Source: Escherichia phage fEgEco12. Taken from it: 64,000 nucleotides of DNA. The stretch lies in the sequence record PP777464.1; one strand, 5' to 3'. Below, piece by piece: positions 59,820 to 63,605 of the stretch. Each line of letters opens with the position of its first letter. The first letter of the stretch is position 1. The position numbers and the translations under genes are program-made. The notes under the pieces were generated by a model that worked only from the letters and a program-made list of their open reading frames with translations, was not told where the DNA came from and ran no database searches.

Positions 59820-59849
59820 GACATACCATAAGTTTATGATATAATGTAA

Positions 59850-59881
59850 GGTGACAGCAGAATATGTTGTCGCCTTTTTTT
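59850..59881 (+). terminator. Rho-independent terminator
   Basis: GGTGACAGC-agaatat-GTTGTCGCC then TTTTTTT. Confidence 0.7.
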
Positions 59882-60501
59882 AATCCTGAAAGGTTCCATA
59901 TGGAAATGATTAAAGCCTAATCCACTCGAAAAGTAGAGGGTAGATGAGTAGTCCTTTCAGTACGAACAGCAAATGAAACCCGTTAGATGATGGCATAGTT
60001 TGAACCACTCACGGCAATGCGGCTGTATAAAGAACTCCAATAGGATAAAGAGAGTTCCTCGATAGACATATAAGGATCGCACCTTACCAATTATCTAAGG
60101 GAGATTTCATGAGAAATTTGCGGTCGTAATTTATACAATATAGTTGCGTCCAAAATTCGTGAAATCAAATACAAGTACTGGTCATATGGTATTTGTATTA
60201 TGTGTCGGGATGTTTAAGACCGACGACCGTTGCTACAAGAACCGCGATAGAGAGAAACAGAGCAACCCGCTTTCGCCTCGTAAGAGAATTCGTGATATGA
60301 ACTATGTGAAGGCCACCAGCGTCAAACTTTTTTTGTTCTTTCCCCTGCGGGGGGGATGAAATATGCTCAAGCAAACCCCGTCAATATTAATTAAAACAAA
60401 TCATAGTACTTTCGTCGAATTAGACATGCGAAGCGTGTATAATTCGACTGGTGTTGATGTAGTCAACGCCATGTACAGTCATTGATGTTTCCATAGGAAT
60501 A

Positions 60502-61047
60502 ATGATGTCATTTATTAAAAAATCTAAAAGCGTCACTTATAAAACACTAGAATTTGTTGATTCAGACAATCAGAACCAAGACCAAGAGAATTTTACTGGT
60601 TTTGTTGTGATTAAAGAAAAGGGATGTATTTCGTACATCAAAGAGTTGCAGTGCGGTTTTGAATTAACTTCCATTAAGTTATTCCCAACCAAGAAGCCTA
60701 CAATTCTTAAAGCTCGTTATGGGAACTACTACGAAGAGCGTTATAGTAATAATCTAATCAGTGCGAAAGCACATATCGTCAATGGAGAACTAGAAGGAGA
60801 ATATAGAAAATTCAACCCACAAGGAAAATGTGTTTGGGTTAAATACTTCAATTCAGGAAATGATGTAACATCAGAAATTATTGAGTTTTTAGGTTTAACA
60901 TGTACCCTTGAAACTCTTCATGATTACAAATTTAATACTGAAGAAGAGTTTAATCTGATGATGCGTTATGGATCACATTTTAAATTTTTATATGAATACA
61001 ACATTGACAGTAGTACTTTTGATGACATAGTACTTAACTGTCTATAA
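60502..61047 (+). CDS. hypothetical protein, possible MORN/YwqK-like repeats
   Basis: Repeats of G-x-Y-x-E and NGELEGEY / FNSGND; weak. Confidence 0.45.
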   Translation: MMSFIKKSKSVTYKTLEFVDSDNQNQDQENFTGFVVIKEKGCISYIKELQCGFELTSIKLFPTKKPTILKARYGNYYEERYSNNLISAKAHIVNGELEGEYRKFNPQGKCVWVKYFNSGNDVTSEIIEFLGLTCTLETLHDYKFNTEEEFNLMMRYGSHFKFLYEYNIDSSTFDDIVLNCL

Positions 61048-61063
61048 TCAAAGGAAATTATGT

Positions 61064-61588
61064 ATGTCGAAGAAGGATGCTTCGAAGAAAAAACAATCAG
61101 TACATTTCAGTACTGGGAAAGATAACTGGACTACTCCAAAGGATTTCTTTGAAGATTTGGATGAACTCTGGGGATTTACACTAGATGCAGCATGTGTTAA
61201 AGAAACAGCATTGTGTGATAATTTCTTTACACCAGAAGACAATTCACTTGAACAGGACTGGGGAAACAATATCGTGTGGCTCAACCCACCGTACAGTGAT
61301 TTGAAAACGTGGTTATCTAAGGCAGTTGATGCATATAACAAAGGTGCTACAGTACTGATTCTCGTACCATCAAGAACTGATACTATAGCCTTTCAGGATT
61401 ATGCTGCGAAAGTTTGTGATTGTATTTGTTTTATAAAAGGTCGCTTAAAGTTCGGTATCCCTGAAGAACCAGATAAAAAGACTGACAGTGCTCCATTCCC
61501 TAGTTGTTTAATAGTACTGGATAAGTATTTGACTCCAGCTAAAATCAACCATCTTAAATCTATTGGTCAGGTGATGAAGAACATATGA
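61064..61588 (+). CDS. DNA N6-adenine methyltransferase (phage Dam family)
   Basis: N-terminal DNWTTPKDFF and catalytic NPPYS motifs. Confidence 0.75.
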   Translation: MSKKDASKKKQSVHFSTGKDNWTTPKDFFEDLDELWGFTLDAACVKETALCDNFFTPEDNSLEQDWGNNIVWLNPPYSDLKTWLSKAVDAYNKGATVLILVPSRTDTIAFQDYAAKVCDCICFIKGRLKFGIPEEPDKKTDSAPFPSCLIVLDKYLTPAKINHLKSIGQVMKNI

Positions 61589-62118
61589 AAGAAACATGCG
61601 TAGTGACATTCGGAAGAATTAACCCTGTACATCGAGGTCATGGTTTAGTGTTTGAAAAAGCTCAAGCACTACAAGAACAGTACAATGCTGATTTGAAAAT
61701 ATTCCTTAGTACCAGTACTGATGCCATCAAAAACCCATTACCTCCTGAACTGAAAATGTACTATACAGAAGGATTTTACCCATCTGTACAAGAAAATATC
61801 TATACAGAAGATAATCTGTTTGATATAATGAGAGAACTGGATGGAAAGTACTTAGATGTTCTTTTCATATGTGGTTCAGATAGACTTGAACCATTCCAAA
61901 AAACACTTGACACGTACAATGGGAAGTTATATAATTTTTGTTCAATCAAGGCAGTTCAAGCTGGAATTGACCGAAATATAAGTCGCTACAGTTCCACACA
62001 GATGCGTGAGTTTGCCAAGAATGAAGATTTTAATAGCTTCAGTACTTTTCTACCTGGTAATGATGATGCACTGAAAACTAAACTATTTGAAGATGTAATA
62101 AAATACATGAGGAAATAA
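61585..62118 (+). CDS. Nucleotidyltransferase, NMN adenylyltransferase-like
   Basis: GRINPVHRGH (H-x-G-H) and YSSTQMR (S-x-T-x-x-R) motifs; ATGA junction with methyltransferase. Confidence 0.6.
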   Translation: MKETCVVTFGRINPVHRGHGLVFEKAQALQEQYNADLKIFLSTSTDAIKNPLPPELKMYYTEGFYPSVQENIYTEDNLFDIMRELDGKYLDVLFICGSDRLEPFQKTLDTYNGKLYNFCSIKAVQAGIDRNISRYSSTQMREFAKNEDFNSFSTFLPGNDDALKTKLFEDVIKYMRK

Positions 62119-62120
62119 CT

Positions 62121-62414
62121 ATGTCAGTACTGTTTAAAACTAACCCAGTACTTTGGGATCAGAATGAGGATTCGGGTTTCCGTTCAATCCATGTTGAATT
62201 CAAAGGTAATACGGTGGTTGCAATCATTGCAAACAAAACTTTAGGAAACTGGACTGCACAAGTTGTTCCTATGGGATATTCTTATACATCTGATGAAGTT
62301 GCGTTTCTGGCTGAATTATATAGTCAAACACCATTCATCATCAATGTTCTAGAGCGTAGTGATAAGTTAACACATGACGAAGTAATTGACTTCCTGGCGA
62401 ACTTACATGTCTGA
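62121..62414 (+). CDS. hypothetical protein (97 aa)
   Basis: ORF track. Confidence 0.55.
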   Translation: MSVLFKTNPVLWDQNEDSGFRSIHVEFKGNTVVAIIANKTLGNWTAQVVPMGYSYTSDEVAFLAELYSQTPFIINVLERSDKLTHDEVIDFLANLHV

Positions 62415-62694
62415 TGATTCAAATCTAACAGGTTATTTTTTGCAAGAATCAATGATCAAATTCAGTGAACATTTTCCAGTACTAGATGGTGTGGAGATGT
62501 GGCATGTAAAACCACTCTTCCACACTTTCAGTAAAGAGCACAAAATGTTATTGACTGAGGCTTGTAAATCGAATAAAATATGCCAAATCAAGATTGGTGT
62601 AAATGTCTACAAAGGATTAGTCATCTTTTTTGACAACAACAGCAACTACTTTTATATTGTTAAGGAGCATTACGTTGACAAATACAAATACTAA
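62407..62694 (+). CDS. hypothetical protein
   Basis: ORF track; start moved to first ATG. Confidence 0.5.
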   Translation: MSDDSNLTGYFLQESMIKFSEHFPVLDGVEMWHVKPLFHTFSKEHKMLLTEACKSNKICQIKIGVNVYKGLVIFFDNNSNYFYIVKEHYVDKYKY

Positions 62695-63289
62695 TACATA
62701 TTTTCGTTATCTTCGCCTAGGGCTTTCCCTACGCCCAATCCGTGGTAAGTGTGATTCACTTGCTGATTTGGATTATGCATATGCATTACATTGTGATGGT
62801 GTTCAATATGTATTAGGTGACTATGGCACATTCGAAGAATCCAATGACAGTTCAGAAATTATTGCTGGTGTTGCTAACCTTAACAACATTGCCAATAGTT
62901 CTCGTCATGAAATCGTTCTTGAAATTCAGAACTTCATTGAGAAAAATACTGGCAAGCGTACATGGTCATATGTCGGTACTGATGCACAAATGTCAATCGC
63001 ATTTGGTAACGAAGATGGTTATGTAGCACAACTTATTATGGATTTTGAATCAGAAGAGAAGTTCCAAGAATACAAAGAAAAAATCATCCAATCCTTATTG
63101 CAAATGGGTATTCCTGAAGATCGTATGCCTGAAATTCAAAGCATTGATGAGTTTGTTCTTATCCCATCTGATGAAAAATATGATGCGATGTTCACAGCAC
63201 TGAACATTCCTGGTGTAGTGGTTGAGTACTTCGATGATGGTGATAGTGACATTTACCTAGATCTCGACGACGATGATGACGATGAATAA
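62675..63289 (+). CDS. acidic-tail protein
   Basis: Probable TTG start 7 nt after AGGAG; C-terminus DDGDSDIYLDLDDDDDDE. Confidence 0.5.
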   Translation: MTNTNTNTYFRYLRLGLSLRPIRGKCDSLADLDYAYALHCDGVQYVLGDYGTFEESNDSSEIIAGVANLNNIANSSRHEIVLEIQNFIEKNTGKRTWSYVGTDAQMSIAFGNEDGYVAQLIMDFESEEKFQEYKEKIIQSLLQMGIPEDRMPEIQSIDEFVLIPSDEKYDAMFTALNIPGVVVEYFDDGDSDIYLDLDDDDDDE

Positions 63290-63295
63290 TACATA

Positions 63296-63324
63296 TAGCC
63301 CGACATAAGTTCGGGCTATTTTTG
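63296..63324 (+). terminator. Rho-independent terminator
   Basis: TAGCCCGA-cataagt-TCGGGCTA then TTTTTG. Confidence 0.7.
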
Positions 63325-63335
63325 TAAGGGGAAAT

Positions 63336-63605
63336 ATGAATTACAAACATATACAATTCACTTATATGGAATTATTTAAATTACACCACAATCACCGAAG
63401 TACTAACACAATTAATAAAAATGCGTTTACCCATAAAATATGGTCAAATTATCTAGAAGAATTACGTGAGTATTTTGTTAATACTGAAATTGTCATTAAT
63501 GGAAAAAAACGAAAGATACTTAGAGTAGATAGTTTCGGTGGTAGATTAGTACTTTCATATAAATTTGATAACGACCTATTCTCTGTGGATTTGGTGAATA
63601 TATGA
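63336..63605 (+). CDS. C-family small protein
   Basis: ORF track; N-terminus MNYKHIQFTY. Confidence 0.55.
   Translation: MNYKHIQFTYMELFKLHHNHRSTNTINKNAFTHKIWSNYLEELREYFVNTEIVINGKKRKILRVDSFGGRLVLSYKFDNDLFSVDLVNI

Follow-up and report, generated by a model that had tools for sequence, protein, structure and literature searches.

Does the meeting of a DNA methyltransferase gene and a nucleotidyltransferase gene in a jumbo coliphage mark a joint device against restriction and against the depletion of NAD+? The initial annotation of this locus had proposed such a module; its account of the pair as a whole is supported in part by our analysis, which gave no sign, however, of a module that rebuilds NAD+. 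The two overlapping genes are encoded in a 350-kb jumbo phage genome (Asteriusvirus) and were studied in a window of 64 000 nt from Escherichia phage fEgEco12 (PP777464.1), which is 100% identical to the Asteriusvirus phage Ecwhy_1, whose annotation already names the pair as a DNA methyltransferase and a cytidyltransferase. ORF1 (61064..61588, + strand, ATG start, 174 aa) encodes, according to its HMM matches, a Dam-family (PF05869) orphan DNA N6-adenine methyltransferase; ORF2 (61585..62118, + strand, ATG start, 177 aa) encodes a stand-alone HIGH-motif nucleotidyltransferase (NTase) of the phage 'cytitidyltransferase' family (PHROG 3041/395). Both are real genes and not chance ORFs, as indicated by their Pfam and PHROG matches and by the fold that AlphaFold predicts for ORF2.

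The ORF list and the DNA itself confirm that the two genes share an ATGA start/stop overlap (61585..61588, + strand): the junction reads ...AACATATGAAAGAA..., and the ATG of ORF2 shares bases with the TGA of ORF1. The motifs that had been quoted for the two products (DNWTTP and NPPYS in ORF1, GRINPVHRGH and SSTQMR in ORF2) are likewise present in the translations. The overlap is not special, as 4-nt overlaps are routine in this genome: they occur at 13 out of ~93 same-strand gene junctions in the homologous 43-kb stretch of WPEC5 (counted from its annotation table), where more than half of the same-strand junctions overlap in one way or another. ORF2 might also be initiated independently, since a Shine-Dalgarno-like AGGTGA is found 10 nt before its ATG. 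The pair is flanked by a 181-aa ORF upstream (60502..61047, + strand; phrog_16210), which is syntenic with it in related jumbo phages, and by a 97-aa ORF downstream (62121..62414, + strand; phrog_14956), also syntenic with the pair. Two hairpins followed by T-runs resemble intrinsic terminators: one (59848..59876, + strand) closes the preceding unit, and the other (63295..63319, + strand), which follows the ORF at 62630-63289, is probably the 3' end of the transcription unit containing the pair.

Judged by its profile matches, ORF1 clearly belongs to the Dam family, as first described: it scores 114.3 bits against Pfam PF05869 (gathering threshold 28.1; E=6.3e-33), with the match covering profile positions 7-153 of 169. 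It also matches phrog_111 (E=2.6e-57) and is classified by PADLOC as an orphan methyltransferase (oMTase, 4e-35). The full-length HMM match, the catalytic (D/N)PP(Y/F) motif in the form NPPY (residues 74-77), the length of ~170 aa and the stand-alone occurrence in a phage all liken it to the known phage Dam family (PF05869/TIGR01712); it differs in failing the strict equivalog assignment, scoring slightly below the cut-off of NCBIfam TIGR01712 (91.8 bits against 97.05). An enzyme of this family would move the methyl group of SAM onto N6 of adenine in phage DNA, and the standard role proposed for it would be self-protection from restriction. GATC is mildly depleted in the window (152 sites observed against 201-247 expected).

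The second protein is harder to place. ORF2 matches PHROG 3041 ('cytidyltransferase') with E=8.7e-54 and PHROG 395 with E=2.6e-24, over residues 2-176, and its AlphaFold model (pLDDT 86.7, pTM 0.83) has the Rossmann fold of the HIGH nucleotidyltransferases. From this model we assign ORF2 with confidence to a predicted HIGH-motif nucleotidyltransferase fold with its catalytic motifs intact. The conserved residues are R11, H16-x-G-H19, K49-N-P-L, G97-S-D-R100 and S136-S-T-x-x-R141; all residues that are invariant or nearly so in the family (H19, R100, S136 and R141, as well as R11, P14, G18, N50, K57, G97, D99, Y111 and N112) are present in ORF2. The nucleotide-binding motifs, H16-R-G-H19 and S136-S-T-Q-M-R141, are common to the whole HIGH superfamily and not specific to NMN adenylyltransferases (NMNATs); the invariant motifs particular to the ORF2 family are GSDR and YNG-x-YNF. 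Among the Pfam and NCBIfam HMMs, ORF2 reaches the threshold of no NMNAT, PPAT or Pfam family. A direct sequence search of the PDB gave no match for ORF2, and a profile of its family scored at most 25 bits against any full-length PDB sequence. A word-indexed protein search returned close relatives only (at least 61% identity), and PADLOC gave no defence-related match for the NTase.

The initial annotation had likened ORF2 to archaeal-type NMNATs, and this likeness holds at the level of motifs and of nearest relatives but not at that of family membership. NadM and the archaeal NMNATs are indeed nearest to the family (HHalign probability 90.6% for NadM). The NMNAT models, however, are missed by a wide margin: ORF2 scores 18.4 against TIGR00482 (cut-off 112.45) and 16.5 against NF000840 (cut-off 150), in both cases with only the N-terminal HxGH stretch matching. 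ORF2 is also only 15-18% identical to NadM and archaeal-type NMNATs (Francisella NadM, 2qjt; M. jannaschii MJ0541, 1f9a; phage CBB_113), and it has GSDR and YNGxxYNF but neither a Nudix domain nor their conserved D..N..W segment. From published structures we take this segment to be the part that binds nicotinamide. In the HHalign alignment it falls opposite a variable, gapped and unconserved part of the NTase family, with the NadM Trp opposite a gap, and ORF2 contains no Trp at all.

A role against NAD depletion would further call for partner enzymes, and a Nampt or ADP-ribose pyrophosphokinase gene had been named as a partner to look for beyond the window. We looked for such partners in the window and in the complete Asteriusvirus genome TH47 (97.7% identity over a 3-kb query around the pair), and found none. 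Neither tblastn (E<=10) nor phmmer --max (E<=1) recovered Nampt, NadM, NadR, PnuC or Prs in these sequences; the sole match of any NAD-enzyme query was that of the NTase's own 25-residue HxGH stretch to NadR (E=0.38). The annotation of the first 50 kb of WPEC5 lists no NAD genes. The NARP2 pathway consists of a phage Nampt and an NMNAT/Nudix protein (Osterman et al. 2024, bioRxiv 10.1101/2024.02.11.579819). It resembles the present case in including a HIGH-superfamily NTase, in principle able to adenylylate NMN, but differs in that here the genome has no Nampt and the NTase no Nudix fusion: the Nampt CBB_115 found no match in TH47 or the window by tblastn (E<=10) or phmmer --max. For NARP1, E. 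coli Prs and Nampt (Namat family) were unmatched in the same sequences, a search that very divergent homologues could escape; for NARP3 (a NadR-like protein and PnuC; PMC13464706), PnuC was not found there and NadR matched only through the HxGH stretch of the NTase. Lacking Nampt/Namat, Adps/Prs, NadR and PnuC, the phage would be unable to recycle the nicotinamide released by TIR/SIR2 effectors.

Relatives of the phage give further evidence on this point. CBB, GAP32, BF, Munch, RaK2-like phages and Kaldavass encode a bona fide Nampt and NadM/Nudix pair besides their ORF2 orthologue, at a separate locus 20-25 kb away, and thus keep both a true NadM and the ORF2 orthologue. Hundreds of cyanophages, moreover, have the NTase family but no Nampt; of the 375 Synechococcus-phage records in which the family occurs, at most 55 could also have a Nampt/Namat match, leaving at least 85% without one. 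These data do not support a role against NAD depletion. That ORF2 is nevertheless a stand-alone NMN/NaMN adenylyltransferase, raising or restoring NAD+ from NMN or NaMN made by the host and forming with Dam a module against both restriction and NAD depletion, we regard as unlikely: its closest characterised relatives are NMNAT domains, and the P-loop kinase that is fused or adjacent to distant homologues resembles the layout of NadR (NMNAT plus kinase), but the failed HMM cut-offs, the unconserved D..N..W segment, the missing partners and the relatives that keep both enzymes speak against it.

The family to which ORF2 belongs is large. At E<=1e-3 it comprises 3,420 representative clusters (50% identity), and it is found in 565 phage records, 460 of them from cyanophages, mostly T4-like. 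It is core to the T4-like cyanophages and also occurs in RaK2-like jumbo phages, in pelagiphages and in thousands of metagenomic clusters. The names that GenBank gives its members range from cytidyltransferase through PPAT and NMNAT to ribonucleotide reductase. Nothing turned up in the literature under 'cytitidyltransferase', DUF6267 or DUF5824, nor did we find biochemical work on any member of the family. The cyanophage 'cytitidyltransferases' (T4-GC 190; e.g. P-SSM4 PSSM4_155 and Syn9 gp184; PHROG 395/3041/455) belong to the same family as ORF2, with 30-35% identity (E 1e-12 to 1e-22) and identical invariant residues. Unlike the 177-aa ORF2, however, they are 270-450 aa long, carry additional DUF5824-like modules at the N or C terminus, have DUF6267 upstream or fused, and are without a Dam neighbour; one member has been found in virions. 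The partner domains of distant homologues are DUF6267, DUF5824 and a Zeta/AAA_33 kinase, none of which is an NAD enzyme, and DUF6267 gave nothing significant against PDB sequences. When these domains and the cyanophage neighbours were sought in the Asteriusvirus genome, the NTase domain was all that the two had in common. The surroundings of 80 IMG/VR loci are those of T4-like replication and structural genes (UvsX, gp41-type helicase, virion proteins), with no metabolic partner gene near the NTase in any of the 80.

Could the two enzymes act together on phage DNA, with the NTase making or recycling a nucleotide-linked cofactor or donor for the methyltransferase, or with both acting in sequence? 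Direct adjacency or overlap of the Dam and NTase genes is kept in at least five genera (Asteriusvirus, Alcyoneusvirus KP13-7, Munch, Kaldavass and Eneladusvirus BF) at protein identities of 34-68% (34-41% at the lowest), and in KP13-7 it is intact despite genes inserted on both sides of the pair, so some functional coupling could exist. But the phages of this clade are broadly collinear, and adjacency is therefore expected even without coupling. The adjacency is confined to the RaK2-like clade: outside it, no Dam gene neighbours the NTase in P-SSM4, Cr30, C48C1 or the 80 IMG/VR loci. With PF05869 enzymes being ordinary SAM-dependent methyltransferases and overlapping junctions being normal in the genome, we consider a coupled DNA-modification pair very improbable. 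The same confinement to one phage clade bears on the proposed two-function module, whose pairing of Dam with the NTase is a matter of synteny.

Other functions of ORF2 alone fare little better. It could adenylylate another cofactor precursor as an auxiliary metabolic gene, e.g. FMN or, in the manner of PPAT (CoA synthesis), 4'-phosphopantetheine. But its likeness to CoaD/PPAT is at the fold level only (HHalign probability 30.6% for E. coli CoaD), no PPAT model of Pfam or NCBIfam scores, the family has an invariant GSDR where PPAT has RGLR after strand 4, and an essential CoaD is already supplied by the host; all this makes such a role very improbable. That the substrate is a macromolecule, either RNA or protein, or that the enzyme is delivered in the virion for early action as with the longer cyanophage homologues, has some points in its favour: purified virions of cyanophage S-SZBM1 contained the cytidylyltransferase and its neighbour (PMC9146016), 'virion structural protein' PHROGs come after the long homologues in T4-like IMG/VR contigs, and the HIGH superfamily includes the tRNA-modifying TmcAL, the best match to the C-terminal motif (3gmi, E 7e-6). 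The Asteriusvirus orthologue gp393c, however, is not among the 62 proteins of the phAPEC6 virion proteome, ORF2 has none of the extra domains, and its conserved KNPL loop appears from alignments to resemble the acceptor-phosphate loop of small-molecule NTases, which leaves this the faintest of the possibilities named here.

The reading that we prefer, with a probability of roughly 60%, is that of two independent enzymes, an orphan Dam and an orphan-family NTase with an acceptor expected to differ from NMN, which stand side by side by clade synteny and have no NARP-type role in NAD+ metabolism. The pair would lie in a tightly packed block of early/middle genes, kept together by synteny across the clade, with no functional coupling between ORF2 and Dam. 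ORF2 would belong, as a stand-alone and catalytically intact enzyme, to a large clade of HIGH-motif (cytidylyltransferase-like) nucleotidyltransferases that is specific to phages. By analogy with the superfamily, an NTP (ATP being the likeliest) would be bound through its triphosphate by the HxGH and SxTxxR motifs and R11; a small phosphorylated acceptor would then attack the alpha-phosphate of the bound NTP with its own phosphate, releasing pyrophosphate, and the predicted product is a pyrophosphate-linked NMP-phospho-acceptor of the dinucleotide type. We expect the acceptor not to be NMN because the presumed nicotinamide-binding segment is absent and the family has its own invariant motifs (GSDR and YNG-x-YNF). 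ORF2 would lie outside any NARP-type pathway of NAD+ reconstitution. A bolder reading, and a distinctly doubtful one, is that the family makes a nucleotide-linked metabolite new to phage biology, or that its members are divergent NMNATs which stand alone and recognise the acceptor in a new manner, and that in the RaK2-like clade it works with the linked Dam-like enzyme.

A lone HIGH-motif NTase beside a Dam gene should accordingly not be counted as a gene for NAD+ reconstitution or against Thoeris or DSR. Marine and jumbo phages carry this family in great abundance, and settling the biochemistry of a single member would change the annotation of hundreds of phage genomes.

Two further features came to light in the course of the analysis. 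An RNA of ~410 nt lies just upstream of it (59916-60326, + strand); it is multi-copy, supported by covariation and absent from Rfam (the interval 59.5-62.5 kb gave no hit when scanned for Rfam families and for tRNAs). TH47 holds four copies, with no common gene set downstream of them, and the experimentally detected ncRNA002 of PA5oct, considered as a homologue, gave no nhmmer match. The palindrome AGTACT is in 15-fold excess throughout a clade of jumbo phages. These incidental observations, the RNA and the AGTACT excess, may outweigh the result on the gene pair in importance.

The two genes lie in an Asteriusvirus-type jumbo coliphage, of which the window is a part. Positions 60400-63400 are 100% identical in Escherichia phage Ecwhy_1, 97–99% identical in WPEC5, EC.P1, TH47 and others, and about 82.5% identical in 121Q, PBECO4 and phAPEC6. 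ORF calling recovered both genes as the initial annotation had given them, on the + strand: a 174-aa ORF at 61064-61588 (Dam) and a 177-aa ORF at 61585-62118 (NTase), with the ATGA overlap and all four of the quoted motifs present. Two terminator-like hairpins, both on the + strand (59848-59876 and 63295-63319), enclose a unit made up of a ∼620-nt ORF-poor leader, a 181-aa ORF, Dam, NTase, a 97-aa ORF and two further small ORFs. We also observed a perfect sigma-70 consensus (TTGACA, 17 nt, TATAAT; 12/12) inside the NTase ORF (61907-61935, + strand), pointing to the downstream small ORFs; it could act as an internal promoter or have arisen by chance (overall, 22 promoter-like sites were found and 17.7 expected).

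Several GenBank records already annotate the pair as DNA methyltransferase and cytidyltransferase. In others the NTase is labelled phosphopantetheine adenylyltransferase (Turkey3) or mislabelled 'ribonucleotide reductase A' (Ecwhy_1; 121Q, KM507819; S-MbCM6/S-MbCM25). The C-terminal module of a cyanophage NTase homologue is matched by PHROG 4808 (91 positions), labelled 'ribonucleotide reductase alpha subunit', which suggests that the latter mis-annotation has been propagated. We read the pair, with a probability of roughly 0.6, as an orphan Dam methylase next to an active stand-alone nucleotidyltransferase from an abundant, biochemically uncharacterised phage family, which would adenylylate or cytidylylate a phosphorylated small acceptor, probably not NMN.

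By its sequence, the first gene is predicted unambiguously to belong to the phage Dam family, as had been proposed: it scores 114 bits against PF05869 (threshold 28), matches PHROG 111, is an 'orphan methyltransferase' in PADLOC (E=4e-35) and carries the catalytic NPPY motif. It falls 5 bits under the strict NCBIfam equivalog cut-off, and a sequence search turned up no solved structure of a relative. On the usual reading, such an orphan methylase would shield phage DNA from restriction; GATC is no more than mildly under-represented in the window.

No curated Pfam or NCBIfam model claims the NTase. It scores 16 bits against CTP_transf_like (threshold 21), 18 against FAD_syn (threshold 27) and 16–18 against the NCBIfam NMNAT models (cut-offs 112–150), the last matching only the first ∼25–40 residues around HxGH; it does match PHROG 3041 (E=9e-54) and PHROG 395, each labelled 'cytidyltransferase'. 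An AlphaFold model built from 12 homologues (pLDDT 86.7, pTM 0.83) confidently shows the Rossmann-type fold of the HIGH-motif nucleotidyltransferases, and PPAT/CoaD ranks first among its Foldseek matches (E 2.6e-6, TM ∼0.62). In a diverse alignment of the family, H19, R100, S136 and R141 are invariant, and R11, P14, G18, S42, N50, K57, G97, D99, Y111, N112, G127 and F152 are nearly so; the window protein holds every one of these residues, so that the enzyme is probably active.

Which acceptor it uses is where the main rival enters, namely that the second gene encodes a true NMNAT. The initial annotation had called it closest in pattern to archaeal-type NMNATs, and the nearest neighbour of the family profile is indeed the NMNAT domain of phage NadM (CBB_113; HHalign 90.6%, E 1.3e-6, 142 columns), ahead of E. 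coli NadR (74.6%, E 2.6e-5, 31 columns), CoaD (30.6%, E 5e-4, 142 columns) and NadD (28.8%, E 6e-4, 22 columns). This closeness is at superfamily distance, with 15–18% identity. Matches of the profile to PDB sequences are weak: over the full length, PPAT (E about 1e-4) and NaMNAT (6e-4) come out best, and the match to the TmcAL-like MJ0951 (7e-6) is confined to the C-terminal motif. In archaeal NMNAT structures the D..N..W residues bind nicotinamide, but this NadM segment aligns to a gapped, unconserved stretch of the NTase family, and the window protein has no tryptophan at all. Conversely, GSDR and YNG-x-YNF are invariant motifs peculiar to the family and missing from NMNAT and PPAT.

Genomic positions bear on the same question. 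NadM and Nampt, represented here by the NARP2-type genes CBB_113 (NadM NMNAT/Nudix) and CBB_115 of jumbo phage CBB, are widespread in phages (CBB, GAP32, BF, Munch, Kaldavass, EJP2, RaK2, K64-1 and KP13-7), and in several of these phages the small NTase, too, has an orthologue, at a separate locus: at 42.2 kb in Munch (NadM 65.7 kb, Nampt 67.4 kb) and at 32.0 kb in BF (NadM 53.8 kb, Nampt 55.5 kb). In these phages, then, the NMNAT of the NAD pathway is a protein other than the small NTase. We consider a true NMNAT unlikely, and favour adenylyl or cytidylyl transfer onto a small phosphorylated acceptor, probably one other than NMN.

A role against NAD depletion, as initially proposed, would call for a partner: Nampt/Namat in the phage NAD+ reconstitution pathway NARP2, Adps in NARP1, or NadR/PnuC in NARP3. 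The window was searched together with a complete Asteriusvirus genome, that of TH47, which shares 97.7% identity with the window over a 3-kb query around the pair. Nampt and NadM of CBB served as queries, as did NadR, Prs and PnuC of E. coli; tblastn was run at E<=10 (E<=1 with the E. coli proteins) and phmmer --max at E<=1 over all ORFs. The single match was the NTase itself to NadR, over 25 residues around HxGH. The initial annotation had seen no partner in the window, and the Nampt and Prs queries likewise found nothing within it; beyond it, where a Nampt or ADP-ribose pyrophosphokinase was to be looked for, none is detectable in the complete TH47 genome. The Asteriusvirus lineage thus has no detectable Nampt/Namat, Adps or NadR/PnuC, and, going by the published pathways, the phage would be unable to rebuild NAD+ from the nicotinamide or ADP-ribose freed by TIR/SIR2 effectors. 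The argument holds for cyanophages too, by counts: 375 Synechococcus-phage records have the NTase, but at most 55 have a Nampt/Namat match and at most eight a NadM match (both are ceilings, since Synechococcus was outside the ten most frequent genera in those searches).

The NTase family is large: an exhaustive profile search gave 3,420 50%-identity clusters at E<=1e-3 (2,252 of them at E<=1e-10), and tblastn found it in 565 phage records, among them 375 of Synechococcus phage, 61 of 'Cyanophage' and 24 of Prochlorococcus phage. The cyanophage carriers are T4-like cyanomyoviruses (e.g. S-PM2, Syn9 gp184 and P-SSM4); further carriers are Pelagibacter phage HTVC008M, Caulobacter phage Cr30 and RaK2-like jumbo phages. 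Among the best 150 representative hits, 93 have at least 380 aa (up to 1,224 aa), and the NTase domain is mostly N-terminal. A Pfam scan of 66 long homologues found CTP_transf_like in 47 (E<=1e-3), DUF5824 in 13 and a Zeta-toxin/AAA_33 P-loop kinase in five; in HTVC008M the kinase is the gene adjoining the homologue. A DUF6267 gene lies immediately upstream in P-SSM4 (L015 2354-3280, in the fetched locus) and C48C1 (L017 1823-3046), and PHROG 455 is a DUF6267-NTase fusion profile. Eighty IMG/VR loci with NTase homologues resemble T4-like myovirus fragments, in which UvsX and a gp41-type helicase are encoded upstream of the homologue and PHROGs labelled 'virion structural protein' downstream of it. 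None of the partner domains of the long homologues is detectable in the Asteriusvirus genome, and these associations give no indication of NAD metabolism. Fusions to the kinase fit a general scheme in which X-phosphate is made by the kinase and NMP-P-X by the NTase; NadR, RibF, HldE and CoA synthase conform to it too. Virions of cyanophage S-SZBM1 contain the cytidylyltransferase and its upstream neighbour gp139 (PMC9146016); by contrast, the Asteriusvirus orthologue, phAPEC6 gp393c, is absent, like the Dam protein gp394c, from the 62 virion proteins of that phage (PMC7247149).

Dam directly adjoins the NTase in four other RaK2-like phages: Munch (8-nt overlap; Dam 67% and NTase 53% identical to the window proteins), KP13-7 (4-nt overlap; 68% and 57%), Kaldavass (adjacent; 42% and 40%) and BF (adjacent; 41% and 34%). 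Mostly the same 181-aa and 97-aa ORFs flank the pair, which in KP13-7 is intact despite gene insertions on both sides. Among the other-phage and IMG/VR loci examined, Dam was found next to the NTase nowhere outside this broadly collinear clade, and 4-nt overlaps occur at 13 of ∼93 junctions in the homologous WPEC5 stretch. In our reading, the pairing reflects synteny inherited within a compact genome; that the two genes are truly coupled in function is very improbable. The Dam gene and a HIGH-superfamily NTase nearest to NMNAT thus stand from the initial interpretation, while the anti-NAD-depletion function and the two-gene counter-defence module do not find support.

A conserved element of ∼410 nt, a structured-RNA candidate, occupies the ORF-poor stretch directly upstream of the Dam/NTase block (59916-60326, + strand). 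TH47 has three paralogues, all on the − strand of the fetched stretches (L007:48130-48514, L010:17048-17424 and L012:2567-3018), and the size across copies is ∼360–450 nt. The element is better conserved than its flanking genes: it is 95% identical to 121Q (flanking genes 82.5%) and about 70–76% identical in Munch, BF, CBB, GAP32, Kaldavass and others, where neighbouring proteins share just 34–68%. There are four copies per Asteriusvirus genome and five in other RaK2-like genera (61 records, 271 places); a strong + strand terminator closes three of the four TH47 copies, whose neighbouring genes form no common set. RNAalifold, applied to 20 copies of 57–95% identity, predicted 63 pairs in 16 helices, with compensatory double changes at 33 of the 63. 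Of the cells, 97.8% are paired (34–44% with partners slid by 1–3 columns), double-change cells number 208 (5–17 in the slid controls), and the covariation score of 0.463 (<=0.072 in controls) was reached by none of 500 shuffles. Invariant G-U pairs place the element on the + strand. It has an optional ∼45-nt hairpin module in two alternative positions and tetraloop-receptor-like motifs; no match was found in Rfam 15, nor any detectable relation to ncRNA002, which RNA-seq defined in the related phage PA5oct. The stretch just 3' of the core (60327-60400) is also kept in paralogous and orthologous copies, in the order T-run, CCCC..GGGGGG hairpin, ATGAAA and then CAACAAATCCCGTCAAT; an open frame is not preserved, codon 3 being a stop in copy 4.

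The window contains 256 copies of the palindrome AGTACT where dinucleotide shuffles predict 17.3 ± 3.6, about a 15-fold excess. The motif can be extended to (C)AGTACT(G), has no codon (3-nt) phasing and is nearly absent at 20.9–26.6 kb and 29.0–37.6 kb. Its density is 2.6 per kb in the whole TH47 genome, 2.9–3.6 per kb in the CBB, Munch and BF loci and 0.13 per kb in a cyanophage locus; the similar densities in the former four make it a clade-wide DNA-level signal, which may serve as a promoter element, be bound by a protein or be a target of methylation.
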